Assembly (NCBI GenBank): GCA_050011835.1
Contig: JBEKII010000002.1
Location: 76,173 to 140,172 of the forward strand
Length of the DNA: 64,000 bases
Source of the DNA: Minisyncoccia bacterium
Lineage (GTDB): Bacteria; Patescibacteriota; Minisyncoccia; Phycocordibacterales; Phycocordibacteraceae
Direction: 5' to 3'
Both the position numbers and the translations under genes were made by a program. The first letter of the stretch is position 1; every line of letters starts with the position of its first letter. Positions 13,295-62,012 of the stretch are shown one piece after another. The notes below the pieces were generated by a model. That model searched no databases. It had not been told where the DNA came from and saw only the letters and a program-made list of their open reading frames with translations.

Positions 13295-14083
13295 GTGTTA
13301 CGTTATACTAATTCCTACATGATTCTCCTGCCGGTCGCACTGCTGTTCATTCTTGGTGCCATTGTCGCGAGTTTTGTCGGAGTACTCGTTGCGCGACTCA
13401 ATACCGGTCAAGGATTTCTTACAGGGCGCTCTCATTGTGATGCGTGCAATGCACCGCTTGCGCCATCTGCGCTCATACCGGTTATTTCCTATATTGTCTC
13501 TAGCGGACGCGCACGTTGTTGCGGTGCGCATCTTTCGTGGCATGCGCCACTTTCCGAGTTCTTGCTCGGCGGACTCTTCGCGCTTTCATATCTAAAACTC
13601 GGCCTTTCAGGCACATTGGTATGGATGCTCCTTTCGCTTTCAGTCCTCCTTGCGCTCACTCTTTATGACCTTGCGCATCAGATACTGCCGCCCGTGCTTC
13701 TCGCGCCATTTGTCGCAGTGAGCGCTGTAACTGGATTTCTTCTTGCGCCGTCTCTCTCACTATTTTTGAGCACTCTCTTTATCGCTTTTCTTATCGCGCT
13801 CTTTCTCGCGTTCATTCATTTTTTTTCGCGTGGCCGTTATATGGGTCTTGCAGATGCGCCATTTGCTTTCGGCCTCTCACTTCTCGCCGGACCGTTCGCA
13901 TTCCCCGGTTTCGTTTTTTCATTCTGGATCGGTGCCGTTGTCGGGATAATTATATTGTACAAGAGACCTCGTGGCTCTAGAATGGGAGTTGAGGTACCGT
14001 TCGCGCCTTTTCTGGCCGCCGGTTTCCTTCTCGCTTATTTTATTCAATGGAATCCATTCGTCTTCGTCGCGGCTTTACACTGA
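13295..14083 (+). CDS. pilD: Prepilin peptidase PilD (A24 family)
   Basis: Tetracysteine motif CDACNAP...CCGAH and polytopic membrane topology. Start could instead be at 13319. Confidence 0.8.
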   Translation: MLRYTNSYMILLPVALLFILGAIVASFVGVLVARLNTGQGFLTGRSHCDACNAPLAPSALIPVISYIVSSGRARCCGAHLSWHAPLSEFLLGGLFALSYLKLGLSGTLVWMLLSLSVLLALTLYDLAHQILPPVLLAPFVAVSAVTGFLLAPSLSLFLSTLFIAFLIALFLAFIHFFSRGRYMGLADAPFAFGLSLLAGPFAFPGFVFSFWIGAVVGIIILYKRPRGSRMGVEVPFAPFLAAGFLLAYFIQWNPFVFVAALH

Positions 14084-24689: not shown

Positions 24690-24770
24690 GGCGTCGGAAT
24701 CGAACTAAAAGTTCAAGCATCTAGGCCATAGAAAGTCCAGTTCGATTATGGACCCGGCAACAAGGTCAGA
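24690..24770. repeat. Island junction: two oppositely oriented tRNA-3'-end-like fragments, a 30-mer repeat, and a degenerate att core
   Basis: Minus strand: GTTCGATTCCGACGCCCATCA. Plus strand: AAGTCCAGTTCGATTATGGACCCGGCAACA, identical to 34595-34624, followed by aggtcagactg (degenerate CAACACGGTTGTGA). Confidence 0.55.
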
Positions 24771-26267
24771 CTGTCCAGCACGGAAGTCCTTAGATAGCTT
24801 GAATATGGGCGACAAAACAGCGGTGCCAAACAATCCGGTGGTTTTGTCGTACACGATGCCCTCTGGTAGCACCAATTTCTGCAATCGTTGCTTCTTTGCA
24901 GGGTTCGTTAGATCGAGCCACTGACGCGCCACATCGCGCACAAATTGCGTTCCATAGGCCAGTTGTATCTCAAGGTCTGCTTCGCTCGTCTGTGCCTCGT
25001 TCTTGGCGATTCTAAGCCCTGTGAGCTGGTTATCTAGCGAATCACGCATCTCGGTATATTCTTCTTTAGAAATCTCTTGGTTAACGCGCATAGTCAGTAG
25101 TCGTCGCTTCTGATTCTCCAAGTTGCCCAATCGGACGGCATAATGCTGTTTCTCCTGTCCCGCGCTTGTCTTGCGAGAGCGTATCTCGTCGAGCATCACT
25201 TGTTCAAACATACTGACAAACTTCTCGGTAGGCGTAATCCGCTTTAGGTAACCGTAGAACTTCTTTTCCAAAATATCCTTGGCGATATTATCTCTGTTGG
25301 TACAGGCCGAATTGTGGCAACGATAGTAGGGGTACTTTTTACCACTACGGCCTGTCTGCCAACTCGCGGTCATGAAAGATCCACAGGTACAGCGAATAGC
25401 CCCGCGTAACGGGAAATCGGGATGGTGTTTAAGGCGGAAACTGGTCGCGTTATTTGATAACCCGCGCTTCACGTTCTGAATGGCCCCGTATTCTTCAAGC
25501 GTAATCATCGGCTTGTGCAGTCCTCGATGTTCGTCGCCGCTCCACGGGTCAGTAAGGACTCCGGCATAGAACTTGTTTGTAAGTATTACGTTCCAGAGCT
25601 GTTTGCTCATCGGCTTACCGGTTCGCGTTTGTAAACCCCATTTATTACTCTCCTCGGCCAGTTGCGTGATGGTGTGCTGTCCGCCAGTATAAAGGCGTAA
25701 ACCCTTTTGAATGAGATAGAAACGCTCCTCATCTGGTTGATCCGGTAGAAGCTTGCGACGCTCCACTCTGTTCTTTGAGTTCGTATATCCTATTGGCGGC
25801 ATCCATGGCGAAATGCCATCGCGCAGACGCGCCCGCATACCGCCCTCGCATCGTTGCTTGCGTATATCGTTTTCAAATTGAGCATATCCGGCTAGCATCG
25901 CCTCAAGCATTTTTCCTACAGGCCCCTCGCTGATTATTTCTTCCGTAACTGAATGTAGAGAAGTGCCGTACTTGAGCAGTTGCGCTTGTAGCCCATAGTG
26001 GTCGGTCATGTTGCGAGCGAAGCGGTCGAGCTTCCAGACAATGAAGGCCTTTATCTCGTCCTTATGTTCCTTGCAGTAGTCGAGTGCCTTGATGAGTTCG
26101 GTGCGATTCGCGGCAGTAGCCGATTCGCCGCGCTCAATGAAAATCTTTGCCACCTTTAAGCCCTTATTTTCGGCATACTCTATACACGCACGCTCTTGGC
26201 TCTCCAAACTGGTGCCGTGGAGCTGGTCGTTAGAAGATACTCGACAGTATATGATTCCTTGGTTCAT
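24705..26267 (-). CDS. Large serine recombinase (integrase)
   Basis: 520 aa. N-terminal resolvase catalytic domain IYCRVSSNDQ...S...R, a recombinase domain, and a Cys-rich zinc-ribbon region (CTCGSF...CHNSAC). Its 3' end overlaps the 30-mer repeat. Confidence 0.85.
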   Translation of the reverse strand: MNQGIIYCRVSSNDQLHGTSLESQERACIEYAENKGLKVAKIFIERGESATAANRTELIKALDYCKEHKDEIKAFIVWKLDRFARNMTDHYGLQAQLLKYGTSLHSVTEEIISEGPVGKMLEAMLAGYAQFENDIRKQRCEGGMRARLRDGISPWMPPIGYTNSKNRVERRKLLPDQPDEERFYLIQKGLRLYTGGQHTITQLAEESNKWGLQTRTGKPMSKQLWNVILTNKFYAGVLTDPWSGDEHRGLHKPMITLEEYGAIQNVKRGLSNNATSFRLKHHPDFPLRGAIRCTCGSFMTASWQTGRSGKKYPYYRCHNSACTNRDNIAKDILEKKFYGYLKRITPTEKFVSMFEQVMLDEIRSRKTSAGQEKQHYAVRLGNLENQKRRLLTMRVNQEISKEEYTEMRDSLDNQLTGLRIAKNEAQTSEADLEIQLAYGTQFVRDVARQWLDLTNPAKKQRLQKLVLPEGIVYDKTTGLFGTAVLSPIFKLSKDFRAGQSDLVAGSIIELDFLWPRCLNF

Positions 26268-26497: not shown

Positions 26498-26499
26498 AA

Positions 26500-26610: not shown

Positions 26611-28050
26611 CTAGGATTCTTTAACATCTCCCTCATTCGTTTCGGGAGTGCATGGTTGTGTAGGCACATCCTCGTTTGCGACAGAGAAGTACGCCTTGTA
26701 GACCGCATCGACCTGTTCTCGCTTGAAGCGGTAACGTGCAGCCCTGTTGCTTCTCGGAAGTTTTTCAGAAGAGAGATTGAATTTAGCGATGACTTTCCCA
26801 ACTTCAGCCGCCCGCTGTTTTTTTGTGATGCAGTCCTCATCAAACAGAAAGACGTCTACAGACTCAGAGATTTCAGATGGCGAAAGAACCATCTCATCCT
26901 GCTCGCCTAAGAGCTGGCGTGTGACCTCTATGATGGCTTGCTCCAGATCCGATACTTGGTATTCAGTGAAGTTGTATTGAGACAAGAATCGTTCCTTGGC
27001 TATTCGCTGGTCGTTTTCCGGTACTCCAAGTACAGAAAACATGACATCGAAAAGCATCCAGAGTTCCAGTTTCCTTGCAAAAAATGCAGGGTTGGTCTGT
27101 CGTTCATACTCAATCTTCTTCATTACATGCGTACCTACAGCAAACATAAAATGGCCAATCAACAATCGGTACAAAGCCCCTCTGGTCTCTTTCCATATAG
27201 GGCTCTCCTCATCAAGAGACTTGAAATTCTTTCTGCTACGCACCAACGAAATGACGATGCACCGGTCGCGCAAGTCTTCGGGGAGTTCTTTTATTGAGGC
27301 AAACGCCTTCGGACTATACGCTTGAAATTCCTCCAAATTCCAATTCTTGCCCTTATCGGCAACCATTTTTCGAATGTTGCCACCCCCACGCTTATAGGAA
27401 TCAGTGAGGATGTCGAGAAGGTCTTCCATGTAGAATGGTCTATTGAGAACATCGGCTTGATCCATGAGATATGTGCCTCGCAACGAATCAACCGTGTCTC
27501 GTAGCGCTGGGAGGCTTGCACGGGCTTTGGTGGCGTTGAAACAGACTTGGTTCAAGAAGCTCAAGCACTGGGTCTTTCCGGAGCCTTTTGGCGCTTTAAT
27601 GTGCAGATAGGGATACGCCGAGAACAGCGGAAAGAAATACGTTCCGATAGCCCATGTACACATAAGAATTACATCAGCCTCGTCAATATCCATGTGTTGT
27701 TTGAGGAGGCTTTTGAGACTCTCGAATATCTCTAGTGGCGCTTGTACTTTCTGACCCGTGAGAAAGGTTTTTAGGAACGCATCGAGTTCTTTTCTGCTCC
27801 ACCGGTGCGCGAGCTTGGCCAGCACTCTTTTCTTAGTGTCAATGTAGTATGTTTTATCTTTAATCGTGAAAGAGTTGCCGGTGATGGTAAAGGCCGATGT
27901 GGCGGTCGCAATAACGAAAAGCTCACTACCGTCTTTGTTAGCCTCCGGTTTGACTCTGAATCCGAGCACGAGAATGTCGTCCTTGATGTCGAGTGATGGG
28001 TGAAAGTTTATTTCCTCGTAGAAGTCAGTCTCGTTGCTTTGCGTTTCCAT
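26611..28050 (-). CDS. P-loop NTPase, likely a replication helicase/primase-associated protein (VirE/D5-like)
   Basis: 479 aa. Walker A KAPKGSGKTQ. Walker-B-like YLMDQAD. In island context. Confidence 0.5.
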   Translation of the reverse strand: METQSNETDFYEEINFHPSLDIKDDILVLGFRVKPEANKDGSELFVIATATSAFTITGNSFTIKDKTYYIDTKKRVLAKLAHRWSRKELDAFLKTFLTGQKVQAPLEIFESLKSLLKQHMDIDEADVILMCTWAIGTYFFPLFSAYPYLHIKAPKGSGKTQCLSFLNQVCFNATKARASLPALRDTVDSLRGTYLMDQADVLNRPFYMEDLLDILTDSYKRGGGNIRKMVADKGKNWNLEEFQAYSPKAFASIKELPEDLRDRCIVISLVRSRKNFKSLDEESPIWKETRGALYRLLIGHFMFAVGTHVMKKIEYERQTNPAFFARKLELWMLFDVMFSVLGVPENDQRIAKERFLSQYNFTEYQVSDLEQAIIEVTRQLLGEQDEMVLSPSEISESVDVFLFDEDCITKKQRAAEVGKVIAKFNLSSEKLPRSNRAARYRFKREQVDAVYKAYFSVANEDVPTQPCTPETNEGDVKES

Positions 28051-28062
28051 ATCAATTTAGTG

Positions 28063-28332
28063 TTAATTTCCATTTAATCTGTCGAGTAACTCGTTTCGCG
28101 CACGCTCGTAGAGATGCACCGGCACGAGTAATTCCGTGTCGTTTCGTTCACCGAATTTATATTTCTCAACTAGCTCCTCTAGGTAAGGTGAGAGCACGAA
28201 CGCAAACTCTTTTTTGCCCGAATCCGATACAACATTGATGCCTGCTATCTGCTGGTTTTTAGCGAATAAAAAGATAGCGAGTTTTAATGATGTGGTGCGG
28301 AGGTACCGCTCTTTATCTGTTCTTGATTTCAT
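28063..28332 (-). CDS. Hypothetical small protein (island)
   Basis: 89-aa ORF in operon arrangement with the ATPase. Confidence 0.35.
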   Translation of the reverse strand: MKSRTDKERYLRTTSLKLAIFLFAKNQQIAGINVVSDSGKKEFAFVLSPYLEELVEKYKFGERNDTELLVPVHLYERARNELLDRLNGN

Positions 28333-28476
28333 CTTTCAATTTTCTTACGAATCATGAATGATGCGAAGCGATTGTGGCCGATGGGAAAATCTAAAACACG
28401 GCTCAAATCATAAAGAAAATACCTGCGGAAGCAGGTCATATTTCACTCGCGTACAATCGACTGCGCTAAAACTACT

Positions 28477-29025
28477 TTATCGTGTGTTGTTAAAAATTAT
28501 TCCTTCGCCCTTTTTCGCTTCTATCAGAGGGCGATTCTCACTTGAGCTGTTTTCAATATTTTTCGCGTATCTGAAAAAACCATTCTGTTCGCTGGTCAAG
28601 TTAGTTCTTATTCTGGCATCTCTGTCACTTCCGTTTTTAGGAGCTATTTTTCTTCCCTTAATCCTTCGTTTTCTAAGAGCAGTCTCAATCTCTGCGTACG
28701 TTTTTTCTCCACCATCTGGCATAAGCTCGAATACAACATCAAAAACATTAAAATAGAGGGTGTTTCGGTTACCTATCGAAATAGAAGCTCCATTGTAATA
28801 ATAAGTCTTATCTACCTTGTCTACGATTCGATTGTCTTTGACTTTAAATCTATTTTCTAACTCCTTAATCCGCCTCTCATGTCCGTCAACCATATCTAAT
28901 CTTGCTTCAATCATTGCTATATGTAGGGCTTTACTGTGAGGGGTGCCGTAAAGAGCATCAAAAAGCAAGTGACGCCTCTTGCGTTTTAGATCCCCCTCAT
29001 TTACTGAAATATTCTTATTCTCCAT
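28477..29025 (-). CDS. Hypothetical protein (island)
   Basis: 182-aa ORF. No recognisable motif. Confidence 0.4.
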   Translation of the reverse strand: MENKNISVNEGDLKRKRRHLLFDALYGTPHSKALHIAMIEARLDMVDGHERRIKELENRFKVKDNRIVDKVDKTYYYNGASISIGNRNTLYFNVFDVVFELMPDGGEKTYAEIETALRKRRIKGRKIAPKNGSDRDARIRTNLTSEQNGFFRYAKNIENSSSENRPLIEAKKGEGIIFNNTR

Positions 29026-29149
29026 ATCAATCTCAATGCAATTATCTCATATTTTGCGCCATATTTCAAGCGTTTTGTACACATGTGAGCGTCATGAACT
29101 TTGATGGTGCTAGCAAGATTACTACTACCTGCTACACTAACCTCGTAAA

Positions 29150-29300
29150 CCGAATATGTGCCTAAACCCTCGGTAACGAGGGCATGGCGAGAGGCCCTGT
29201 AGAGATCAGAAAACCCATCATGTGGGACTGTCTCTACAGGCCGTAGCGGGAAACCGTTATGGAGGGCGCAAGCCCTCACCCATGTGGTGGGTTTTCTGCG
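29150..29300 (+). ncRNA. Candidate structured RNA or cis-regulatory leader with three GNRA-capped hairpins
   Basis: ccctcg-GTAA-cgaggg. ggccctgtagaga...tctctacaggcc (13-bp stem). cgg-GAAA-ccg. gagggc-GCAA-gccctc. Strand is uncertain. Confidence 0.3.
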
Positions 29301-29336
29301 TAAACACAAACTCTCCTCTGGCTTTAATAGATTGAG

Positions 29337-31157
29337 ATGAAAATTACCATGAAAAAAATTACCGTCGCTCTCGCCGTTCTATTTTTTGTAGTGCCATCAG
29401 TATCGTTTGCAGCGGGTCTCACGAATTCACAAATTCAAGCAATACTCTCACTTCTTTCCTCTTTTGGCGCAGATAGCGCGACGGTTGCAAGTGTTCAGAC
29501 AGCTCTAACCGGAACATCAACGACCGGAGGGCAATCCTGCTACAACTTCTCTACCAATTTACGCATAGGACAAAGCGGCTCTGGCATCACCGCGCTTCAA
29601 ACGGCGCTTCGGAATGACGGGGAATCAGTAACCGTGAGCGGCTCGTTTGACGATCAAACCGCCTCTGCTGTTACGGGTCTCCAACAAAAGTATGCAAACG
29701 ATATCCTTACCCCGAATGGCCTTCAATACGGTACTGGCTATGTTGGTGCTGCAACGAGAGCGAAATTGAATAGCCTTTGTGCCAATGGTTATCAACAGAC
29801 GACCTCAGCGATGAATCCGGCGACAACACAAACAGTAACGCCGACACCGCCGACACCGCAGACCAATCAACAAAATACTCAGCCGGTAACACCAACTCCG
29901 ACACCTTCTGTTTCTTCAACACAAACAAATTCACCATGGGTAGACATTAAGGCCGATGGTTCTAATGGCCCGATTACTATGCCCATAGACGGCCCAGCAG
30001 TAACAATCTCTTGGACATCGCATGGTGTACTGAATTGTGCCTTTACCGACATGTCGGGTGTAGCGACGAGCGTCAGCACATCTGGCAGTAAATCGGAATC
30101 GTTCTCAGGAACGGCGCAGAAGAATACAGTAACTATTAGCTGCTCTGCTCTGGTGAATAATGTTGTTACACCAAATGCGGTTTCCGACTCGGTCGTTGTG
30201 AATGTAGCCCCTCCAACAGGGCAAATCTCACCGATTTCCGTTTCATCCGATTCGAGTCCAGCCAATGTATTCCAAGGTACCGGCGGGACACTCGCTAGCT
30301 TCACTCTGACTGGTTCAAATGAGGCAGTAAAAGTTACCGACCTCTATCTCTGCTCCATTGATTCGATTCATCATGGTGGTCTTGCAAACGTCTCCATCAT
30401 GGGAGTCAATGCCTCGACACTGTCGATTGTCGACTGCGATACGAGCCCTGCAGGCACTGACTTCTCGCTCGGTTCTTCTCTCATCCTGCCAGCCAGAGGT
30501 ACGGCCTCAATAACTGTCTCCGGCACTGTGAAAACATCGACAGGAACAAATCTCTCGGACGGCGAGACGGTGCAAATCAAGCTCGTCGGTCAGGGTTCTC
30601 AAGGATCTAATGGCGTAGGCCAATCTTCACTCAATCCTTACACCATACCGAGTAGCGATGTCTTAGGACGCGCGGTGCCCGTTGTCGGTAGTGGGACACT
30701 TTCTGCATCTCCGGCATACTCGTGCTCGTTGGTTCAGACCGGTCTTGGTAATCAGAGTGCCTGTCTCGGATCATTTACGCTCTCTGCGATGAAAGAGGGA
30801 ATCACCGTTAACACAATAGGAATTGATATGTCGGCAGCCAATGCGGCGCTCGTGACGAATCTAACACTGAAGTATCACTATGGTGATAACAATCAGGGTG
30901 CAGTACTTGGCTCAGTCATCACAACACCAAGTGCAAACAATCCGTTTTATATGACTCCTGTATCTTTTGGTACTGGGAGGGGTCTCGATATTTCAACCTC
31001 GGGACTCACAACGATTGATGTCTATGGAAATGTTCCATCGGGTGCGGGTACAATTCAATTGACTCTCGACCCATCGACGAGCGGTACTGGCGATATGACG
31101 GGCATTTCGGCCTCGCTTGCCTCGCCAGTGCAGCTCAAGGCCGTTACAATTCAGTAG
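29337..31157 (+). CDS. Secreted cell-surface protein with a PG-binding-like domain and Ig-like repeats
   Basis: 606 aa. Signal peptide plus a conserved leader (AAGLTNSQIQAILSLLSSFGADSAT). A LxxGxxGxxVxxLQ PG_binding_1-like block. Thr/Pro-rich linker. Confidence 0.65.
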   Translation: MKITMKKITVALAVLFFVVPSVSFAAGLTNSQIQAILSLLSSFGADSATVASVQTALTGTSTTGGQSCYNFSTNLRIGQSGSGITALQTALRNDGESVTVSGSFDDQTASAVTGLQQKYANDILTPNGLQYGTGYVGAATRAKLNSLCANGYQQTTSAMNPATTQTVTPTPPTPQTNQQNTQPVTPTPTPSVSSTQTNSPWVDIKADGSNGPITMPIDGPAVTISWTSHGVLNCAFTDMSGVATSVSTSGSKSESFSGTAQKNTVTISCSALVNNVVTPNAVSDSVVVNVAPPTGQISPISVSSDSSPANVFQGTGGTLASFTLTGSNEAVKVTDLYLCSIDSIHHGGLANVSIMGVNASTLSIVDCDTSPAGTDFSLGSSLILPARGTASITVSGTVKTSTGTNLSDGETVQIKLVGQGSQGSNGVGQSSLNPYTIPSSDVLGRAVPVVGSGTLSASPAYSCSLVQTGLGNQSACLGSFTLSAMKEGITVNTIGIDMSAANAALVTNLTLKYHYGDNNQGAVLGSVITTPSANNPFYMTPVSFGTGRGLDISTSGLTTIDVYGNVPSGAGTIQLTLDPSTSGTGDMTGISASLASPVQLKAVTIQ

Positions 31158-31962
31158 GGGTACTGTTTGGTAGTGTGTTATTTGGCGCAAAATAGTTAGG
31201 AATTAAGCCTTATTCATCAATGTCAGCACACGACACCAATTTTGTTGTTCTTGGTCAATATCTTGCCGGCTAGCTTGGTCTAAGCTAAGTTATAAATAGG
31301 AACGCAAAAAAGCCCTTCTTTCGAAGAGCTTTCTGGGTTCTCAAGAGTTACACCTCTTTTTGAACAGTCTTGTTTCTAGGAAGCGCTCTTAACCTTACGG
31401 CGAGAGCGTTTTCCTTTTCTCGACACTCCCCCAATAGGGAAGCACTTGAACCCGTAATCGGAAGCGTGTAATACGCGACCGTTACGGAGGGTTATGGTTG
31501 CAACGCAATTCATAGTTCTGTTTTTGTTGGCGGAGCTTGATAAAGATTTCATTATTTCAGGGCGTCACGCACTTCACTCCCTAATGCGCTGGCAGAAAAC
31601 ACCGATGGATAGACCAACGGTCAAAGCCAATAGATTTCAAAGAACAAAGGCCTCAAGGGACGGGACTCCGTGGAAGTTTCCTTCCGCGAAATACCCTCCT
31701 CTAAGGCCTTCTAATCTGTTCGATTTGAAAATCTGTTGTCTTAGGTAATTCGGTAAGTCCCGTCCCCTCTTGCGAGGTAACTCCAATATAACACTTTTTT
31801 CTTTGTCAATAGCCTTTTCGGAAAGACACCTGTGGAGAGCGGATTATTCGTCGTCTTTCCCTTCCATCTTTGCAGTAATTATCCTAGTTAAACTAAAATA
31901 ACCTATCATCAGGCTAGTTAAACTAACATAATATATCATCCGACAGCATCCATTCGGGCTAT

Positions 31963-32481
31963 TTAAGTGGCCGCTGCCGCGACGTCCTCCATCGTGATAC
32001 CAGCCCGCTTGATGAGCATGTATTTCGTTTCGCCGGAGAGATATGGCTTTCGTATCGCACGGGATATCGCTCTCGCTTTCCTCGATGGTTGCTCATACTG
32101 AAGGCGACAGCAGATACGGCAGAGCGGGGATTCCAACATACTGTATTCGTAAAGGTACTTTACACGGCGGTAACAGCCGTTGCAGCGGAAGTAGAAAATA
32201 TATCCTCGGTCTGGCCCAAGATTGGAGGGTACGAACTCTACTTTCTGCCGATCCCAGTATAAATAACCGCCATGAATATCTCGCGCCGACTTAAAAGCGG
32301 TATTTTCAGGAAGATTTATCTGCTCAACCATATTTTTGACTTCGCCTAGATGTCGGGTGTTGAATATCCGCCCCCTATCCCTCATGTGCCACACAAAGGT
32401 TCTGATGTAGTCAGTAATATCCTTTCGATCTAACACTGTTATTTTCTGGTTTTTCTCTTGTCGGGAGCTGTACATAATCAC
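31963..32481 (-). CDS. Hypothetical protein with a Cys4 zinc-finger-like motif
   Basis: 172 aa. CNGC...CRICC motif. Confidence 0.4.
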   Translation of the reverse strand: MIMYSSRQEKNQKITVLDRKDITDYIRTFVWHMRDRGRIFNTRHLGEVKNMVEQINLPENTAFKSARDIHGGYLYWDRQKVEFVPSNLGPDRGYIFYFRCNGCYRRVKYLYEYSMLESPLCRICCRLQYEQPSRKARAISRAIRKPYLSGETKYMLIKRAGITMEDVAAAAT

Positions 32482-32571
32482 TAAGAATCTCTAAGACAAC
32501 TCTGCATAGCTCCGCAAATCCACGCTCAGCCATGCCGAAATCTGTTGCCAATCTCGTCTAACGGATGCAAC

Positions 32572-32690
32572 ACGGTTGTGACGCCAGGAACCAGTACCGT
32601 CCCCCGTCAAAATTGGTACTGTACCGACCCTCATGGTCGGCTAGAAAAGCGCATAAAACCACGAGAGTGATTTTTGCGTATGTAGCATTT
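32572..32690 (+). repeat. att-like core plus tail, copy 3
   Basis: caacacggttgtgacgccaggaaccagtaccg...ggtactgtaccgac...aaaagcgcataaaaccac. Confidence 0.6.
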
Positions 32691-32812
32691 CCAACATATT
32701 TCCAGTTCAATTCCGACTCTCGTATTCGCCACTGTTTTGTGTTCTAATCACGGGAATCTGGTTCAATTCCGGCGCGGGTTTTTATATAAGAAAAGAGTAT
32801 ATAATCTAGAAA

Positions 32813-33397
32813 ATGAAGCGCATACCAATACCAAGTCCTTATTTTGACCTGAACGAACAGGTGAGCGATCTCTATTACGACGCAATGGAATTGGTTGATA
32901 GCGGGAAGGTTGGTGCGAAAAGGGCAGAGAAACTTTTAACAAAGGCACTTGAGCTCGATCAGCATTCCGTTCAGGTTCATATTGGTTTTGCACATGTATA
33001 CGGAACGCTTGGGGACAAAGTGAAGGCCGAGGATCATATTAAAAAAGCGTATAAAGAAACACAAAAACTCTTTCCCTCATGGCCTCGGCGCATGGAATGG
33101 GGCATTATGGAGAACCGGCCGTATATGCGAGCCATTCAATATCAGGCAGATTTATACGCTCGCACGAAAGTGAACGAAAAAGCCATTGAGCTATACCGGC
33201 TCCTTTTAAAAATGAATCCGAATGATAATCAGGGAGTTAGGTACACACTTTCTGGCGTCTATGCGGGAATAAGCGGTCAGGAGATAAACGCGATGTTTGA
33301 TGAGGGGAACGAAAAGCAAAACTGGGACGCGCTTGAACTACTGGTCAAGGAACAAAACGCGCAACACAGGTTTTGGAAAGAACCAAAACTGAAGTAG
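32813..33397 (+). CDS. TPR-like repeat protein
   Basis: 194 aa. Helical repeat pattern of the form (ALELDQH...AYKE). Confidence 0.5.
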   Translation: MKRIPIPSPYFDLNEQVSDLYYDAMELVDSGKVGAKRAEKLLTKALELDQHSVQVHIGFAHVYGTLGDKVKAEDHIKKAYKETQKLFPSWPRRMEWGIMENRPYMRAIQYQADLYARTKVNEKAIELYRLLLKMNPNDNQGVRYTLSGVYAGISGQEINAMFDEGNEKQNWDALELLVKEQNAQHRFWKEPKLK

Positions 33398-33412
33398 TTT
33401 TGCTGAGCCTAA

Positions 33413-34468
33413 TTATTTTCTTCGATATCGCGTCGAACGGCCGCTACCGATGCGCTCGATCATCTTGAGCCGCATGAGTTTCTGCAAGGCTTGATTCACA
33501 GTCGGGCGCGGCACTCCAGCCGCGAGAGCAATTTCGCTCGGAGTCGCAGTGCCGGTCTGTGGAATATTCTTCCACACTAATTCCTGTTGCGGCGAAAGAA
33601 GTTGTTCGGTCTGTGCGTGCGTGAGCAAGTTGAGTGCCTGTTTCGACTGTTCAAGAATCACATTCAAGAAGAAGCGCATCCACGGTGTGATATTCGCATT
33701 GTTAAATCGAAACGTTCGTTGGCTCTGTCGGAGCGCGAGATAGTAATCGGTCTTATGGTCCTCGATGATTTTCTCATGCGAGACGTAGGGCATATAGGCG
33801 TAGCCCTGCTGCAAGAGAAGAAGGTTCGTGAGAATGCGTGACAGCCGCCCGTTGCCGTCCTCGAACGGATGAATGGCGAGAAATTCCACGATGAAGTTGC
33901 CGATGACGAGAAGAGGATGAAATTTCCGTTCGAGAATCGCTTGTTGTGTCCACTCCACGAGTTCCAACATTTCTTTGCCGGTCAGATACGCAGGCGTAGT
34001 ATCGAACAGCACACCAACCGACTCATCGGCGGCGTTTACCATCTCAACACGATTTTCTTTCTTCTTGTATTCGCCCCGATGCAGTTCGTCTTTTTCTGCA
34101 TGCTTCAAAAGCTCGCGATGGAAAAATTTAATAGTGCCTTCGGAGAAGGGAATTGATTGATACGAATTGAAGACATTCGTGAGCAATTCATAATATCCTT
34201 GGACCTCTTGCGCATCGCGACTTCGGAATCGCTTGAGCGAGAGTCCGCGCATGAGTTTCTCTACGTCTTCATCAGAGAGTTCTGATCCTTCGATGCGCGT
34301 CGAAGCGCCTGTCGAAGTGACTAGTACTGATTTTCGCAGACGCGTGAGCACCTGCCGATCCAAGTTAGCGCCTTCAACCCACTGCCCGCGAAGCTCGTCT
34401 ATCTGGCGAATAAGCTCCGAGATTTCGTTCGGAAAGGTCGTTATTCTTTTGTTAAATTTTCCATTCAT
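33413..34468 (-). CDS. Fic/Doc family protein with a C-terminal winged HTH
   Basis: Fic motif HPFEDGNGRLSR (HPFxxGNGR). Start set at the internal Met (MNGKF...). C-terminal wHTH. Confidence 0.8.
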   Translation of the reverse strand: MNGKFNKRITTFPNEISELIRQIDELRGQWVEGANLDRQVLTRLRKSVLVTSTGASTRIEGSELSDEDVEKLMRGLSLKRFRSRDAQEVQGYYELLTNVFNSYQSIPFSEGTIKFFHRELLKHAEKDELHRGEYKKKENRVEMVNAADESVGVLFDTTPAYLTGKEMLELVEWTQQAILERKFHPLLVIGNFIVEFLAIHPFEDGNGRLSRILTNLLLLQQGYAYMPYVSHEKIIEDHKTDYYLALRQSQRTFRFNNANITPWMRFFLNVILEQSKQALNLLTHAQTEQLLSPQQELVWKNIPQTGTATPSEIALAAGVPRPTVNQALQKLMRLKMIERIGSGRSTRYRRK

Positions 34469-34594
34469 AATCTTATATATCTGATACATGAGATTGTATA
34501 AGATTACATAAGAAAATGCAATATCCTGAGTACTGAACGGGGCGTAGAATTTAATAAAAGCAAGTAGATAAGCCACATGTGACACTTTTCAGAT

Positions 34595-34754: not shown

Positions 34755-35747
34755 ATGAAGAAGAGTACACTTATCCGAACTTTCGTCATCGCGCTCTTGC
34801 TCGTGGCGCCCTCCATGGCGCTCGCAGCAGGTCTTACCTCATCGCAGGTAGGCGCGATCCTTGGTCTCCTTCGCGCCTTCAATGCACGGGAATCACTCAT
34901 CGCGAGCGTCGCCGACGCCCTCGTGCCCTCGCAGCTTGCCGATCCGCTTCCGGCACCAGTCTCTTCATCGACTCCCGTCGTACCACTTACGCGCCCTGAC
35001 ACGAGCGGCAGTCCCTACACCTCGGGCAGCCTCGGCTACGATCTTTCATTCAATACGCAAAACTATCCCCAGATACCGTTCGGCTTCGTTGTAGTCGGCG
35101 TCACGACCGGCAAGGCATACGCGTATAATGAGCGCGCCCGCTCGGAATATTCTTTTGCGCAGTTCGGTTCCATACGACCGACCTTCTATCTCAATCTCAA
35201 TGCACCGTATGGCAGCACCGCGACGAGCACGAACATGAACGCACCACATGCCTGCGATGCGCTTTTCGGCGCAGCCACCACATCCACTTCGGCTGGCGGC
35301 ACGTATCCAGAGCCGACCGTCTGCGCAAGCTATAACTATGGTTACAACGCAGCGAAAGGCGCCTACGCCTATGCGGCGGGCGCAGGCGTCTCGGCGCCAC
35401 TTTGGTGGCTCGATGTCGAGGATGCGAACAGCTGGTCGCCCGATGTCGCCGTGAACGATGCGGTGATACAGGGAGCAATGGATTACCTGAATGACGAGGG
35501 CATCCGCGTCGGCATCTACTCCGTGCCACGCATGTGGCGCGATATCGCTGGCGATAGCTTCTCTCTCGCACAATCGTTCTCGGGCAGAAGCGCCGCCACG
35601 CCAACCTGGTTTCCAATCGGAATCGCCACGGAGGTTGGAGCTCTCAATGCATGCCTCACCGGCAGCTCCCTCATCTCCGGCAGTCCCATCTGGATCATCC
35701 AGTATGAGACGGATTCGACCGCCGTCGACCAGAACATCGCATGCTAA
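34755..35747 (+). CDS. Secreted protein with a putative glycoside-hydrolase-like (GH25/DUF1906-like) domain
   Basis: 330 aa. Signal peptide plus the same conserved leader (AAGLTSSQVGAILGLLRAF). C-terminal domain with WWLDVE...SW and GIYS motifs. The family call is tentative. Confidence 0.5.
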   Translation: MKKSTLIRTFVIALLLVAPSMALAAGLTSSQVGAILGLLRAFNARESLIASVADALVPSQLADPLPAPVSSSTPVVPLTRPDTSGSPYTSGSLGYDLSFNTQNYPQIPFGFVVVGVTTGKAYAYNERARSEYSFAQFGSIRPTFYLNLNAPYGSTATSTNMNAPHACDALFGAATTSTSAGGTYPEPTVCASYNYGYNAAKGAYAYAAGAGVSAPLWWLDVEDANSWSPDVAVNDAVIQGAMDYLNDEGIRVGIYSVPRMWRDIAGDSFSLAQSFSGRSAATPTWFPIGIATEVGALNACLTGSSLISGSPIWIIQYETDSTAVDQNIAC

Positions 35748-43345: not shown

Positions 43346-44665
43346 ATGAGAATATTACTTATATCATCAAGTAATAGCATTGCTGCCCACTTAGCGTATC
43401 TGCTGAAGCAAGAAGGCAATGAGGTAAGGCTTTTTATAGATGATATCGATCGTAAAGAAAATTTTGAAAATATGGTTGAAAAAACCGACAATTGGCAGAA
43501 AGAGCTGAAATGGATCGGAAGAGGAGGGAATGGTCTTATAGTTTTTGACGATATCGGTTATGGAAAGATTCAAGATGAGCTTAGAAAAGAGGGGTTTTCA
43601 GTATTCGGGGGTTCAGAGTTAGCAGATAAGCTGGAGGATGACCGACAGTATGCCCAGGAGATTTTTACTAAGGAGGGTATAAAAACGGTAACAACGAAAA
43701 ATTTTAATGATATTCAAAGTGCTATCGATTTTGTCAAGAAGTATAAAGGGGCATGGGTGATTAAACAGAACGGCCACGACTCAAAAGGTCTCAATTATGT
43801 AGGCTTCTTTGATGACGGACATGATTTGGTAAATGTTTTGGAGAATTATCAAACAAACTTGAATCTGAAAGGAGAAGCGCGAATCATTACTCTTCAGCAG
43901 AAAATCAAAGGAGTTGAAATAGCTGTAGCAAGATATTTTAATGGTATTGACTGGGTTGGTCCGATCGAGCTCAACATCGAGCATAAAAAATTCTTTCCTG
44001 GTGACATGGGTCCGGCAACGAGTGAGATGGGAACCCTCGGATGGTATATTGATAGAGAAAATAATAAATTATTCAATGAGACTCTTGGGAAACTCAAATC
44101 ACATCTCAAGAAAATCAATTATAAAGGAGCGATAGATTTAAATTGTATTGTGAATGAAACCGGAGCATATCCTCTTGAGGTAACACCACGTTTTGGATCA
44201 CCCATTGTTTATCTTCAGGCAGAATTGCATAAATCCCCATGGGGAGAGTTTTTAAAGGCCATTGCTGACGGGAAGTCGTATGATCTAAAATGGGAAAAAG
44301 GTTATGGAGTAGTTATTCTTGTTACGGCTCCGCCATTTCCATATGCAAAAAAGCTTCCCGATTTGTCTCCCAAAGGTTTGAATATTTATCTAGATCCTTC
44401 CCTGAAAGAAAGCGGTCTTAAACATATTCATTTTGAAGGAGTGGGCTTAAGAAAAGGGAGTGGCCCGAAACAATACTACATCTCTGATTATCAGGGCTAT
44501 GTTTTGTATGTGACAGCTGTAGATAATACAGTTGAAACCGCTCGTACCAAAGCATCACAAATCATTCGACATATCTATTTCCCAAAAATGTTCTACCGCC
44601 ACGATATCGGGATCAGTTTTATAGAAACAGAATACGACAAGCTTTGTCGATGGGGGTATATATGA
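43346..44665 (+). CDS. ATP-grasp enzyme, divergent phosphoribosylamine-glycine ligase (PurD)-like
   Basis: 439 aa. KGAWVIKQNGHDSKG and EHKKFFPGDMGPATSEMG resemble PurD's VVKADGLAAGKG and DHKR..DGD.GPNTGGMG. Confidence 0.5.
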   Translation: MRILLISSSNSIAAHLAYLLKQEGNEVRLFIDDIDRKENFENMVEKTDNWQKELKWIGRGGNGLIVFDDIGYGKIQDELRKEGFSVFGGSELADKLEDDRQYAQEIFTKEGIKTVTTKNFNDIQSAIDFVKKYKGAWVIKQNGHDSKGLNYVGFFDDGHDLVNVLENYQTNLNLKGEARIITLQQKIKGVEIAVARYFNGIDWVGPIELNIEHKKFFPGDMGPATSEMGTLGWYIDRENNKLFNETLGKLKSHLKKINYKGAIDLNCIVNETGAYPLEVTPRFGSPIVYLQAELHKSPWGEFLKAIADGKSYDLKWEKGYGVVILVTAPPFPYAKKLPDLSPKGLNIYLDPSLKESGLKHIHFEGVGLRKGSGPKQYYISDYQGYVLYVTAVDNTVETARTKASQIIRHIYFPKMFYRHDIGISFIETEYDKLCRWGYI

Positions 44666-44709: not shown

Positions 44710-46332
44710 ATGAATCCAATTCTTTGCTCAGGAGAAACACCATATTTTCTAAAATTTTTTGATTTATCTACCGCTCCACCTCTTCTTTTTTACACGTATA
44801 TTCCAGCGATCACCGCATCTCTTTTCCTAGGTTTTTACGTTTATAAAAAAGCAAAAGGATCGCTGGAAAGCAAGTTGCTCCTTTTTATATCAATTTTCTT
44901 TTCGCTGTGGGTTCTAGATATTTTGGTTCTCTGGGTGGCTTCGTATAACAGTCTGCTTATGTTCGGCTGGCAGATAACGCCAATATTTGAAGTCCCTCTT
45001 TTTATTTTTACTGTTTATTTCACTTATGTGATGACCGATAAACAAAGGAAAGACATTAGTCCTACGCTTAAACTTATCTTCTTAAGCATTATGGGCATCG
45101 TCTTTTTAATTCTTCCAACGAAATTAAATATTCCTTTCTACAATCTAAACAATTGCGAGGGGGTTCCGGGTATCTATTGGAATTTTGAATATATTGCCGA
45201 GATGGTAGTGATAGTCTGGGTATTAGGTATCTGTATAAGTAGATTCCGCGCCCTAAAAAAAGGTGACGAGTTTAAGAAACAAATCATTTATTTCGGTATC
45301 GGAGTCGCGTCGTTTTTAGTTCTATTCGCCGGATCGAACATTGTCGGGCAGATGACTGACATACAGGTAATAAGTTTTTTAGGCTCGCTCGGCGTAGTTA
45401 TACTTCTTGCTTTCCTTTCTTATCTCATTGTTCGTTATAATGAATTTAAGATCAAAGTATTTGCTACTCAGGCCTTAGTTTTTGCAATCACATTACTTAT
45501 TGGATCACAGATATTCACGCCGAGCAGTACTACCGATCTGTTTGTTACCGCTATTACACTCATTGCATTCTTGGCAAGTGGATTCTTTCTTATAAAAAGT
45601 GTCAAAGGAGAAATTGAGCAGCGCGAACGCGTTGAGCAACTCGCAGAACAACTCTCTGAGTTTATGTCGCTCGCGACACATGAGATTCGCGGTCCCGCCA
45701 CGTTTATTAAAGGATTCACGGCGAGCGCGCTTGAGGGCGATATCGGCGAGCTCACGTCAGCGACTAAGGATGGCATGCAGAAAATTTTTGTTCGAGCCGA
45801 TGACATTATCCATCTTAGCAATCAGTATCTGGATAAATCAAAATTGGAATTGAACCAGTTGAAATATGAATTTGCGCCGACCGACCTCGGGGAAATGGTG
45901 GGAGATCTCGTGCGCGAGTTCCAGCCCGCCGCCGCCCAGCGAGGCATCATGGTTATGTCTGCTATAGACAAAAACCAATCCTACGGGGTGCAAGCCGATA
46001 GCGGGAAAATAAAAGAAGTTATCGGGAATCTCATTGATAACGCAGTCAAATACACGCCGAAAGGGTCCGTGACGATTTCTATTGCGAAAGACGAAAAAAC
46101 AGTAACAGTAAAAATCGCCGATACTGGCGTCGGCATATCGGCCGAGACCATCCCGCAACTTTTTAAGAAATTCTCTCGGGCCGATGCCGAAAAAGTAAAT
46201 CTACTTGGCTCCGGCCTCGGGCTCTATCTCGCCAAGATATTTATTGATGCCCATCATGGCCGCATCTGGGTTGAATCAGAAGGGAAGGATAAGGGCTCTA
46301 CATTCTTTGTCGAACTTCCTACTGGTTCATAA
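44710..46332 (+). CDS. Sensor histidine kinase with an N-terminal multi-TM sensor
   Basis: 540 aa. HisKA H-box LATHEIRGP. HATPase_c G-boxes DTGVGI and GSGLGLYLAK. Confidence 0.8.
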   Translation: MNPILCSGETPYFLKFFDLSTAPPLLFYTYIPAITASLFLGFYVYKKAKGSLESKLLLFISIFFSLWVLDILVLWVASYNSLLMFGWQITPIFEVPLFIFTVYFTYVMTDKQRKDISPTLKLIFLSIMGIVFLILPTKLNIPFYNLNNCEGVPGIYWNFEYIAEMVVIVWVLGICISRFRALKKGDEFKKQIIYFGIGVASFLVLFAGSNIVGQMTDIQVISFLGSLGVVILLAFLSYLIVRYNEFKIKVFATQALVFAITLLIGSQIFTPSSTTDLFVTAITLIAFLASGFFLIKSVKGEIEQRERVEQLAEQLSEFMSLATHEIRGPATFIKGFTASALEGDIGELTSATKDGMQKIFVRADDIIHLSNQYLDKSKLELNQLKYEFAPTDLGEMVGDLVREFQPAAAQRGIMVMSAIDKNQSYGVQADSGKIKEVIGNLIDNAVKYTPKGSVTISIAKDEKTVTVKIADTGVGISAETIPQLFKKFSRADAEKVNLLGSGLGLYLAKIFIDAHHGRIWVESEGKDKGSTFFVELPTGS

Positions 46333-59261: not shown

Positions 59262-62012
59262 ATGAAAAAGTATATCCTCGGTGCCATTTTCTCCTTCGGC
59301 GTTCTTGTCCCATCAACATTCGCTCAAGCAGCAATCCTCTCAAATTCGCAAATTCAATCAATCCTCTCGCTTCTTTCTTCATTTGGTGCAGACAGTGCAA
59401 CAATAGCGAATGTCCGATCGGTACTTGTTGGTGGCACATCGGCTCACACACTTTCTTCTTCAGGAACAACCCAAAACATCAAAAGTTATGATGTAGTTAT
59501 TTACGGAGGCACAAGTGCCGGAGTAACCGCAGCAGTAGAAGCCGCTAGAACGGGGGAAACCGTAGCCATCATAGAACCCAGCAATCATCTCGGCGGTATG
59601 ACGTCAAATGGGCTGGGAGCCACGGATATCGGTAACCTGCAAACTGTGGGCGGAATCGCAAAAGAATTTTATCAGGACGTTCTTTCTTATTATAACAATT
59701 CGGCTAATTGGCAGTACGGGCAAAATTTCGACGCCTACAAAAACTTAGCAGCGAATTTCGGATATGTCGGCACAGACACTATGATGAGTTTCGAACCGCA
59801 TGTCGCGGAAAATATCTTTAAGCAATTCATTCAAACCTACAACATACCCGTTTTCTACGGGCAGAGACTGAACCTTGATTCTGGCGTAACCAAAAGCGGC
59901 AGCACCATTACACAAATCGTCATGGAGTCGGGAATGATTTTTAAGGCTCAAATGTTTATTGATGCGTCGTATGAAGGTGACCTGATGGCGAAAGCAGGAG
60001 TGTCTTATACCGTTGGCCGGGAGTCAGATAGCATCTATGGGGAAACGCTTAATGGCGTGATTTTTAATCCAAACGGTCCCCATCAATTTGCATCTTCAGT
60101 TGACCCGTATGTTATTAAGGGCAATCCCTCGAGCGGTTTATTGCCGGGAATAAATTCAAATCCCGGGACGAGTGGCCAAGGCGACAATAAAGTACAGGCA
60201 TATAATTTCAGATTATGCACGACCGACGTGCCTCAAAATGCTATTCCCTGGTCTAAGCCGGCTGGATATGACCCCAGCAGATACGAATTGCTTTTGCGTT
60301 ATTTTGACTCCGGTTACGGCAGCAATGTGCAAAGCTCCGACTTTGGTTATAACCCAGGTACACCGTGGGCCTTTCTGCCTATGCCAAACCTCAAAACAGA
60401 TACAAATAACAACGGTCCCTTTTCTACTGACAACATTGGAATGAATTACGATTACCCCGATGGGGATTACACCACCAGAGAAAATATAATTCGCGACCAA
60501 ATTTCCTATCAGCAAGGCCTGTTTTGGACGCTCGCGACGAATCCGAGGGTTCCCCAAAATATCAGGAATGAAATAAATAAATGGGGGCTTTGCAAGGATG
60601 AATTTACCGATAACGGAGGATGGCCAGATCAAATATACGTACGAGAGGGAAGGAGAATGATATCGGATTATGTGATGACGGAAAGTAATTCCAATGGCAG
60701 TAGAAATGCTAGCGATTCCGTAGGGATGGGTTCGTATCCCATAGATTCCCATAATGTGCAGAGATATTTGACGAGCGGAGGAACAGTCCAGAACGAAGGC
60801 GACTTAGTTGGCCTGTCCGGTACGAACTTGGCCGCACCGTATCCCATAAGTTACCGCTCCATCGTTCCTAAAAAGCAAGAAGTAACAAATCTTTTGGACC
60901 CCGTCACTCTCTCGGCCAGCCATGTGGCGTATGGTTCAATGCGAACGGAACCCATATTGATGATTCTTGGCCAAAGTGCGGGAGCTGCCGCGTCTATCGC
61001 AATTGATGACAATGTGGCTGTCCAGAATGTTAACTACAATGAATTAAAACAACAGCTTGTTCATGATGGTCAAATATTAGGCACGGGAGGTCCTGCGGCT
61101 GCCGTTCACTGTCAAAGATGCAGCGTGAATAGTTCCTATCAATGGGTGAATTTTGATTCTACTGACTCCTCCTGCGCTTCAGTTGTTCCTTCTACCAATC
61201 CCGTAACAAGGACCTGCAATTGCAGTTGTCCGGGCAATGTGGGCAACTCTTATCCGCCGGATTGTAGTGCGCAATGCAAAGCGTGCACTGACACCACATG
61301 GTCTCCTGATCCTTCCACGGTTTGCTCTGGCCAATCCTTTACCCAAACGAGCAACTGCGGTACGACCAGAACAGCGGCAGGCACCGAAAATTGTGCGCCG
61401 GTATCTGTCCACTGTGGAAGATGCAGCACGGTGATGTCCTATCAGTGGGCGAGCTTTGATTCTACCGACCCCACCTGCGCCACGGTCGTTCCTTCCACCA
61501 ATCCGGTCACAAGAACCTGCAACTGCAGCTGCCCGGGCGGCTTAAGCAATACGCTCTACCCGCCGAATTGCAGCAGCCAGTGCACAGCACCCTCTGTCGT
61601 TAACGTTTCCGGAGTGTGGAACAAAACAGCGGGAACGGTTCAAAGTGTTTGGACATTGTCTCAGTCCGGATCTTCAGTCAGTGGAACCAGCAGTAGCGGA
61701 GCCACTATCACTTCAGGAAGTATCGGACCAGATGGACACTCTATCTCACTAACTTGGAGTAATGGGTACCGCTTTAACGCGACGGTTTCAAGCGATGGGA
61801 ATAGTATGAGCGGCACGCAGACCAATCCCGACGGTACTTCCGGCGGAACATGGTCAGCCACGAGATCTACGGCTAGCTTCCTTGGCGGCACCAAACAAAC
61901 AGCCAATGCGCTGGGCGCCTTGAACAGCTCGAGTGGCTCACAGCCAACGGCGCGAGGAGGCTTCCTCAACGCTGTCGGCGGATTCTTCTCTCGCCTTGTC
62001 GGGTCTTTCTAA
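59262..62012 (+). CDS. Large secreted protein with an FAD-dependent oxidoreductase-like domain, tandem Cys-rich repeats and a conserved C-terminal tail
   Basis: 916 aa. Signal peptide plus the conserved leader (AAILSNSQIQSILSLLSSFGADSAT). VVIYGGTSAGVTAAVEAA dinucleotide-binding motif. Two ~100-aa Cys-rich repeats. C-terminal GGFLNAVGGFFSRLVGSF. Confidence 0.6.
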   Translation: MKKYILGAIFSFGVLVPSTFAQAAILSNSQIQSILSLLSSFGADSATIANVRSVLVGGTSAHTLSSSGTTQNIKSYDVVIYGGTSAGVTAAVEAARTGETVAIIEPSNHLGGMTSNGLGATDIGNLQTVGGIAKEFYQDVLSYYNNSANWQYGQNFDAYKNLAANFGYVGTDTMMSFEPHVAENIFKQFIQTYNIPVFYGQRLNLDSGVTKSGSTITQIVMESGMIFKAQMFIDASYEGDLMAKAGVSYTVGRESDSIYGETLNGVIFNPNGPHQFASSVDPYVIKGNPSSGLLPGINSNPGTSGQGDNKVQAYNFRLCTTDVPQNAIPWSKPAGYDPSRYELLLRYFDSGYGSNVQSSDFGYNPGTPWAFLPMPNLKTDTNNNGPFSTDNIGMNYDYPDGDYTTRENIIRDQISYQQGLFWTLATNPRVPQNIRNEINKWGLCKDEFTDNGGWPDQIYVREGRRMISDYVMTESNSNGSRNASDSVGMGSYPIDSHNVQRYLTSGGTVQNEGDLVGLSGTNLAAPYPISYRSIVPKKQEVTNLLDPVTLSASHVAYGSMRTEPILMILGQSAGAAASIAIDDNVAVQNVNYNELKQQLVHDGQILGTGGPAAAVHCQRCSVNSSYQWVNFDSTDSSCASVVPSTNPVTRTCNCSCPGNVGNSYPPDCSAQCKACTDTTWSPDPSTVCSGQSFTQTSNCGTTRTAAGTENCAPVSVHCGRCSTVMSYQWASFDSTDPTCATVVPSTNPVTRTCNCSCPGGLSNTLYPPNCSSQCTAPSVVNVSGVWNKTAGTVQSVWTLSQSGSSVSGTSSSGATITSGSIGPDGHSISLTWSNGYRFNATVSSDGNSMSGTQTNPDGTSGGTWSATRSTASFLGGTKQTANALGALNSSSGSQPTARGGFLNAVGGFFSRLVGSF

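Follow-up and report, generated by a model that had tools for sequence, protein, structure and literature searches.

What do three secreted proteins with unrelated bodies gain from beginning with almost the same few dozen residues? The question is raised by a 64,000-nucleotide (nt) stretch of a Minisyncoccia bacterium (contig JBEKII010000002.1, positions 76,173 to 140,172 of the forward strand), hereafter the window, in which genes starting at 29337, 34755 and 59262 encode proteins that we call P1, P2 and P3. A sequence-only reading of the window had proposed that the three share a leader of ~50 amino acids (aa) including the signal peptide. We find that the shared part is a post-cleavage block of ~36 residues, the module, whereas the signal peptides ahead of it are dissimilar, and that this module is very probably an autonomous hairpin domain at the mature N-terminus.

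The block common to all three proteins can be aligned over 34 residues, namely aa 25–58 of P1 (nt 29409–29510), aa 24–57 of P2 (nt 34824–34925) and aa 23–56 of P3 (nt 59328–59429), with amino-acid identities of 74% for P1 and P3, 56% for P1 and P2 and 47% for P2 and P3. When a hidden Markov model (HMM) built from 45 sequences outside the window was run against 1483 six-frame window fragments, it matched exactly P1, P3 and P2, the next match having an E-value of 0.18, and no fourth copy was present among these fragments. BLASTP comparisons of the full-length pairs gave significant similarity at the N-termini only, which bears out the earlier statement that the proteins are otherwise unrelated: P1 carries PG_binding_1, P3 carries FAD_oxidored and P2 has no Pfam family. 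Since the conserved block begins at the cleavage site, behind signal peptides that differ, the similarity is not the generic signal-peptide likeness that had been named as what would refute the proposal.

At the DNA level, the three copies are less alike than had been reported. The ~85% nucleotide identity claimed between 29428–29510 and 59328–59420 compares ranges of 83 and 93 nt that are out of register; in register, 29428–29510 of P1 and 59347–59429 of P3 are 68.7% identical, with 69% identity across the 102-nt module and a best core of 45 nt at 84%. DNA identity among the window copies is 46–69%. The 34 P1/P3 codons comprise 11 that are identical, 14 with synonymous differences only and 9 with residue changes, and 21 of the 32 nucleotide differences fall at third positions. 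This pattern points to copies that diverged long ago while purifying selection preserved the peptide, rather than to a recently copied cassette. The DNA upstream of P1–P3 is unrelated, with neither a shared promoter nor a shared 5′ cassette.

All three carriers are open reading frames on the forward strand. P1 (29337..31157, 606 aa) consists of a signal peptide, the module, a Ser/Thr linker, a PG_binding_1 domain and an unassigned C-terminal part of ~450 aa. Its signal peptide MKITMKKITVALAVLFFVVPSVSF (29337..29408) ends at a predicted signal peptidase I (SPase I) site, SFA↓A, of which the −1 Ala is module position 1, and is followed by the 36-residue module AAGLTNSQIQAILSLLSSFGADSATVASVQTALTGT (aa 25–60, 29409..29516), found by the external-only HMM at E 2.6e-17. 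The PG_binding_1 domain (aa 80–144, 29574..29768, Pfam E 6.5e-05) is downstream of and separate from the module and is bracketed by Cys68 and Cys148. P2 (34755..35747, 330 aa) has a signal peptide, the module AAGLTSSQVGAILGLLRAFNARESLIASVADALVPS (36 aa, aa 24–59, 34824..34931, E 7.4e-13), a Pro/Ser/Thr linker and a body without a family match. Its copy is the most divergent of the three and has a close external counterpart in P0090, AASLTSSQINAILGLLRAFNAEESLITSVAGALTPA. The full P2 protein gave no Pfam or NCBIfam match at E<=0.1 and no PDB sequence relative at E<=1; by eye, its body resembles GH25/DUF1906-like hydrolases ('WWLDVE'), which makes that family a candidate only. P3 (59262..62012, 916 aa), whose gene adjoins recG, has a signal peptide, the module AAILSNSQIQSILSLLSSFGADSATIANVRSVLVGG (36 aa, aa 23–58, 59328..59435, E 6.6e-16), a Ser/Thr linker and an FAD-dependent oxidoreductase domain (FAD_oxidored, PF12831, aa 77–599, 59490..61058, Pfam E 1.6e-105). 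Behind that domain, aa ~617–775 (61110–61585) form two Cys-rich repeats of ~100 aa (HCxRCS...CNCSCPG...C..QC), with 20 Cys in all, and these are followed by a Ser/Thr/Gly-rich region and a hydrophobic C-terminal tail, GGFLNAVGGFFSRLVGSF, with no family assigned.

The signal peptides were called by rule (basic n-region, uncharged hydrophobic h-region of 10–15 residues and small residues at −3/−1) rather than by a trained predictor; SPase I sites follow a −3/−1 rule of small residues (AxA). P1, P2 and P3 each have an MKK-type n-region, an uncharged hydrophobic core and a site of this kind (SFA↓A, ALA↓A and AQA↓A, respectively). The window encodes ~6 such Sec/SPase I-type secreted proteins, of which three carry the module, and its type IV pilins, at 11.1–17.0 kb, have their own leader. 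A further secreted protein, encoded at 39735–41753 on the forward strand, carries PG_binding_1 (aa 567–621) and a T2SS-T3SS_pil_N-like region with no module, so PG_binding_1 proteins of this genome can do without it.

To gauge how widely the module occurs elsewhere, a three-sequence profile was run in a full HMMER search of 1.84 billion representative proteins; it returned 1139 clusters (at 50% identity) with E<=1e-3 and 86 with E<=1e-10; a word-indexed protein search with a 44-aa alignment gave no matches. The consensus over 36 columns is xxxLTxxQIxAILSLLxSFGAxxxxIxNVxxxLxGx. Conservation reaches 91% at Leu4, 81% at Thr5, 98% (98–100%) at Gln8, 92% at Leu15 and Leu16, 95% at Phe19, 88% at Gly20 and 91% at Ala21, and later positions follow with Val29 (79%), Leu33 (92%) and Gly35 (78%). 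Only 7% of module residues are charged, Lys and Arg amount to ~2%, aromatic residues are almost absent, and a linker rich in Ser, Thr, Gly and Pro comes directly after the module.

Among the best 150 proteins, which are 72–1971 aa long, the first copy starts at a median of residue 25 (interquartile range 23–32), the typical span in carriers being residues ~23–58, and 38 of the 150 have two to five copies. N-terminal copies are preceded by AxA-type residues, e.g. FASA↓AGL or FTQA↓AGL, with no linker before Leu4. The module is not confined to this position: 136 of 215 instances are N-terminal and the other 79 internal or C-terminal, often in pairs that lie hundreds of residues into the protein, and the spacing of tandem copies is 36–49 residues. 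Counted by protein, 181 of 229 carriers have an N-terminal copy only, ~21 combine an N-terminal copy with at least one internal pair and nine have pairs only. The two settings also differ in sequence, position 22 being Asp in 85% of N-terminal copies versus Asn or Ser in internal paired copies, and position 32 being Ala in 64% of N-terminal copies versus Val in 52–59% of paired copies.

Genomic carriers were sampled with back-translated patterns from eight close sequences, run against one-genome-per-species GTDB contigs, and the best 80 of 98 confirmed sites were kept; this sample is biased to close relatives because the search pattern was built from close sequences. All 80 loci are in Patescibacteria metagenome-assembled genomes, mostly of Parcubacteria/Paceibacteria lineages, with labels that include Kaiser-, Giovannoni-, Adler-, Wolfe-, Yanofsky- and Sungbacteria, Paceibacterota, Minisyncoccia and 'Patescibacteria/Parcubacteria group', while 16 have no finer label (15 'bacterium', one 'uncultured bacterium'). 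A further label, 'uncultured Candidatus Saccharibacteria', stands on 14 records, and as one large orthologue is common to several of these and to Kaiserbacteria records, we suspect that the label is generic. In 75 of the 80 genomic carriers, the module begins 15–45 residues after a Met and hydrophobic stretch. The IMG/VR viral contigs scanned contained no copy.

The module alone matched nothing in Pfam-A 2025 or NCBIfam 20.0, even at E<=10, and the precomputed Pfam lists of carriers never contain an N-terminal family. A PDB sequence search with the three-sequence profile gave no match, and one with a 48-sequence profile gave only a partial motif of transcription activator-like effectors (TALE). 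Nothing relevant was found in the searchable literature, either for motif strings of the module or for descriptions of surface domains in the candidate phyla radiation (CPR). The module is a domain family not described in the databases or literature searched, within the familiar class of small modular domains on surface proteins. Public annotation names its carriers 'peptidoglycan-binding domain-containing protein', after the neighbouring PG_binding_1.

The fold of the module was modelled with AlphaFold2 in P1 (aa 1–160, 31-sequence alignment) and in a relative with three copies, P0002 (58 sequences), with mean predicted local distance difference test (pLDDT) scores of 80.8 and 77.9, respectively. 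In P1, the module is modelled as a helix (aa 30–42), a turn (aa 43–46) and a second helix (aa 47–58) at pLDDT ~78–89. The four independent copies in the two proteins are all predicted in the same arrangement, with helices of 13 and then 11–12 residues joined by a four-residue turn, FGAD or FGAN (pLDDT 76–89), and both models place a low-confidence linker between the N-terminal copy and PG_binding_1. The suggestion of a mini-domain, one of several put forward on first inspection, thus finds support in a predicted helix–turn–helix unit that recurs in 1139 clusters and also occurs internally and in tandem. Helix 1 presents six strongly hydrophobic positions over an arc of ~160°, with the near-invariant Gln8 within that face, and helix 2 presents five over ~120°; by this estimate, the hydrophobic surface is larger than a two-helix hairpin can bury alone. 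Foldseek searches with both models matched PG_binding_1 and Ig-like bodies only, with no TALE match, and are uninformative for a 36-aa hairpin. On the P1 model they returned peptidoglycan-binding domains (5tv7, 6tci of SleB, 4c2c of CtpB and 3bkh) for the PG_binding_1 part only, and for P0002 they returned Ig-like adhesins and surface glycan-binding proteins. The only module-sized match was the SAP domain of Tho1 (8enk_E, E 7.7, probability 0.18), which is not significant.

The company that the module keeps was assessed by a Pfam scan of 102 carriers, which found 34 partner families in all. PG_binding_1 is present in 67 carriers, followed by TIG (10), Kre9_KNH (9), PKD (8) and CARDB (4), and further partners include Big_13, dockerin (Dockerin_1, as a separate domain in two carriers), LCCL, a trypsin-like peptidase and AA9. 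Judging by partners such as PG_binding_1, TIG, PKD, CARDB, Kre9_KNH and dockerin, the carriers look like surface proteins. Many relatives of P0002 are 65–81% identical to it over its first 21–30% (signal peptide, module and PG_binding_1) and then diverge, which makes a constant head on variable bodies a general pattern. A related contig (L021, JAZDHA010000024.1, 1–6105), compared with 57040–62012 of the window, shows what may be the same at one locus: the two recG genes are 76% identical in DNA, and the place beside recG that P3 takes in the window is taken in L021 by a divergently transcribed gene for a PG_binding_1 protein of >1067 aa that also bears the module, with no DNA similarity beyond recG. 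This difference is compatible with replacement of the body at a fixed locus, or with coincidence, carriers being common.

Two further architectures bear on function. Between their signal peptide and Cys-bracketed PG_binding_1, homologues of P1 have a slot that is occupied either by the module or by a Q/L-rich, coiled-coil-like helix, DLQAQIQALLxQVQQLQxQLxQLQG (P0154, P0156, P0157, P0160, P0162, P0163, P0166, P0169 and P0172), which appears to be a second recurrent, unannotated N-terminal element of Parcubacteria PG_binding_1 proteins. This helix is a single long amphipathic one, unrelated to the module in sequence. Its use of exactly the same slot suggests equivalent roles, such that an oligomerising element can apparently substitute for the module. 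The other architecture is that of a ~200-aa family (P0018, P0025, P0112; L081–L086), usually encoded beside gyrA, in which a conserved N-terminal segment QNYIEILEKTNQQLSFWYLPYE, one transmembrane helix and a charged coiled-coil stalk precede a C-terminal module pair.

Taken together, the Q/L-helix substitution, the wide hydrophobic arc, the two subtypes and the stalk family suggest that the module is a docking or oligomerisation handle. We infer cleavage at the AxA site and an extracellular location for the module. In its commonest form, encoded right after a Sec signal peptide, it would be exposed by SPase I as the mature N-terminus, and the Ser/Thr/Gly/Pro-rich linker would join it to a variable passenger, whether PG_binding_1, Ig-like adhesin domains or an enzyme. 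Because its hydrophobic surface is more than the two helices could bury mutually, the hairpin would associate with a second copy of itself or with some other protein as partner, and such association would retain, cluster or organise secreted proteins at the cell surface. We regard the docking function itself as a tentative assignment, and the whole reading, in which an autonomous hairpin mini-domain acts as such a handle, as a serious possibility that falls a little short of being probable. In an extended form, a lineage-specific system of Parcubacteria by analogy with cohesin and dockerin, single N-type modules at the mature N-termini of many secreted enzymes and adhesins would plug into B-type pairs, either internal to large surface proteins or on a small, membrane-anchored P0018-like stalk protein, to build a modular surface layer, which we consider rather unlikely.

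Several observations weigh against a docking role. Small domains with two helices joined by an extended loop, of which the SAP motif is one, are regarded as monomeric folds, and the wide hydrophobic arc is for that reason only suggestive. The AlphaFold2 models are of monomers, with a predicted template modelling score of 0.35, and carry no information on inter-domain packing, and the AxA cleavage is a prediction. The stalk family sits beside gyrA among housekeeping genes, with no module-bearing neighbours at the loci checked; some of its members, the distant L087–L091, lack the module pair, and the positive-inside rule would even allow a cytoplasmic C-terminal part. Finally, the frequency of PG_binding_1 among the carriers, and the isolated internal N-type copies that lie directly upstream of PG_binding_1 in P0113 and P0109, fit a role at the cell wall equally well.

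That role, which takes up the peptidoglycan-anchoring mini-domain suggested on first inspection, would be non-covalent wall anchoring, in which the hairpin binds peptidoglycan or an envelope glycopolymer, alone or together with PG_binding_1. Besides the association just described, such a function could draw on the conserved polar residues Thr5, Gln8, Ser18 and Asn28, which could contact glycan, and on the tandem period of 36–49 residues, which is reminiscent of wall-binding repeats such as Cpl-7. The same polar residues, however, lie at expected helix-cap positions, and the module has almost none of the aromatic and charged residues that are typical of glycan-binding sites. It is also unrelated to PG_binding_1 and matches no wall-binding Pfam family at E<=10, and where a peptidoglycan-binding domain is already present, a second binder is not obviously needed. 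We consider wall anchoring unlikely. The proposals of an export or sorting leader and of a propeptide, both made on first inspection, place the function earlier, in a mature extension that promotes Sec export, a spacer for signal peptidase or a pro-region removed after export. The usual position fits this well, with a single N-terminal copy in 181 of 229 carriers and no linker before Leu4, as does the near absence of Lys and Arg, in which the early mature region of Sec substrates is generally poor, and half of the ~6 Sec-type secreted proteins of the window carry the module. The 79 internal or C-terminal instances, often paired, are hard to reconcile with it. Moreover, conservation has the pattern of a folded hairpin and not that of a loose bias in composition, the window encodes further Sec-type secreted proteins that do without the module, and no protease-site motif follows the module, which together leave an export element improbable.

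The two remaining alternatives are weaker still. If the module were a recombination cassette, a gene-conversion tract or patch of homology for swapping bodies, its peptide would be functionless. The proposed hotspot for cassette exchange agrees with the many bodies found behind one head across the family, including the partial similarity to P0002, with the different module-bearing gene at recG in L021 and with the location of P1 on what is putatively an integrated element. The window copies themselves, however, bear no trace of recent exchange: identity between them is low, the longest good stretch is ~45 nt, the codons differ for 14 of 25 conserved P1/P3 residues, most P1/P3 nucleotide differences fall at third positions, the signal peptides and upstream regions are unrelated, and what many Parcubacteria-group lineages conserve is the protein sequence. 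For the window this explanation is largely refuted, and for the family as a whole we give it very little credence. A divergent relationship to the 34-aa helical hairpin repeat of TALE proteins, with a role in binding nucleic acid or tracking along a polymer, was suggested by the 48-sequence profile, for which TAL effectors were the only PDB family matched. Both units are 34–36 aa helix–loop–helix elements that start LTxxQ[IV]xAI, and a local hhalign comparison with TALE units aligned module positions 3–14 with repeat positions 1–12 at 58% identity (probability 45%, E 2.2e-4). Globally, the comparison gave a probability of 1.4% and needed a four-residue gap. Each TALE repeat matched the profile over 14 columns, at ~2–5 bits and a per-stretch E >100, so that ~20 near-identical repeats add up to the small E-value of the whole sequence, which we judge an artefact. 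The module, moreover, has almost no basic residues, occurs in single or paired copies rather than long arrays and, as noted, drew no TALE match in Foldseek. The LTxxQ-type start is a common way to begin a helix (hydrophobic staple and capping box), and we take the likeness for a helix-start motif common to both, homology being unproven; we hold a TALE relationship to be extremely unlikely.

How, then, does the module compare with known systems? PG_binding_1 (PF01471), its most frequent neighbour, is likewise a small helical extracellular domain, but it is a distinct three-helix domain downstream of the low-confidence linker and is absent from P2 and P3. That the module might be a fragment of PG_binding_1 was considered and rejected, the hhalign probability being 0.5% against 99.6% for a split-half control. 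Dockerin/cohesin and RIIa/DPY-30-type docking domains may offer a parallel in function, as short additions to many unrelated catalytic or adhesive bodies, and the paired repeats on some scaffold-like module proteins add to the likeness; RIIa dimerisation/docking domains are also helical hairpins of comparable size. Compared with dockerin type I (PF00404), the module has no Pfam match and no calcium-binding loops rich in Asp and Asn, and no cohesin-like receptor was identified. The YSIRK-G/S and KxYKxGKxW motifs similarly form a conserved N-terminal sequence on otherwise unrelated surface proteins of one lineage, but these lie in the n-region of the signal peptide and are removed with it, whereas the module follows the predicted cleavage site, is predicted to form a hairpin and also occurs internally. 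The TALE repeat of Xanthomonas TAL effectors, with its unit of 34–36 aa, shares the start GLTxxQ[IV]xAIxS, a likeness confined to 12–14 residues; the module has no loop of the repeat-variable di-residue type and is found on secreted proteins. SAP motifs match it in length (~35 residues) and in having two short helices with a Gly-containing turn, but they are basic, nuclear and DNA-binding, while the module is nearly uncharged and stands behind a signal peptide.

The surroundings of the three genes add context. Two att-like direct repeats of 34 nt (24733–24766 and 34595–34628) are 97% identical and tRNA-3′-like, with 74% similarity to the end of tRNA-Met (21465–21498) that runs ~25 nt past the repeat. 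The ~9.9 kb between them hold a large serine recombinase (24705..26267, reverse strand), unknown open reading frames, P1, a TPR protein and a Fic/HTH protein, at a GC content of 0.44–0.49 compared with ~0.50–0.55 in the flanks. A further 101-nt repeat (32567–32667 and 34619–34719) is 76% identical. We describe the region as a putative composite integrated element at tRNA-Met (21422–34650), on which P1, lying between the att-like repeats, is plausibly carried. Two module copies had been assigned to island segments; only that of P1 is so placed, the start of P2 lying 127 nt beyond the right repeat. A reverse transcriptase (21633–22754, reverse strand, RVT_1 E 7e-29) and two unknown open reading frames occupy the interval from tRNA-Met to the left repeat; the enzyme could be of the retron, group II intron or defence type, and no matching Rfam non-coding RNA reached the gathering threshold. 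Also within the putative island and on the same strand as P1, a full-length LOOT RNA (Rfam RF03000, 29159–29277, forward strand) scores 84 bits against a gathering threshold of 46.4 (E 2.2e-14) and ends 60 nt upstream of the P1 start codon. LOOT RNA is absent from 40 other module-bearing loci and is thus tied to the context of P1, not to the module.

Elsewhere in the window, a type IV pilus cluster (11123–17009, forward strand) contains four tandem, near-identical major-pilin-like genes, GFTLIELLVVIAIIGILSAVVLASLNTARSKG, and further pilin-like genes; a polytopic membrane protein within it (13295..14083) is, by position only, a candidate prepilin peptidase. ARAGORN places a tRNA-Ile with anticodon UAU at 55693–55767 on the forward strand (Rfam tRNA, 64.6 bits), an uncommon way to read AUA in bacteria. 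A low-GC patch at 42000–46000 (0.38–0.41 versus ~0.50), which may be another acquired segment, contains a GARS-like ATP-grasp protein (43346..44665) and a histidine kinase (44710..46332).

The CPR/Patescibacteria account for a large part of the diversity of bacteria, are mostly uncultured and presumably host-attached, and their surface proteins are almost wholly unannotated. A 36-residue tag found on about half of the Sec-type secreted proteins of the window and in more than 1000 public clusters offers a cheap handle on the surface proteome of Parcubacteria. It is defined enough to be proposed as a new entry in a domain database and, being small and easily expressed, could be used to test how proteins are retained at the surface; should it be a docking element, it would serve as bait for its partner. 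If it is instead a wall-binding or export element, it would still be a lineage marker worth annotating, since its carriers are currently named only after the adjacent PG_binding_1. Were the modular docking layer to prove true, these episymbiotic, ultra-small bacteria would be putting together much of their surface proteome through this module.

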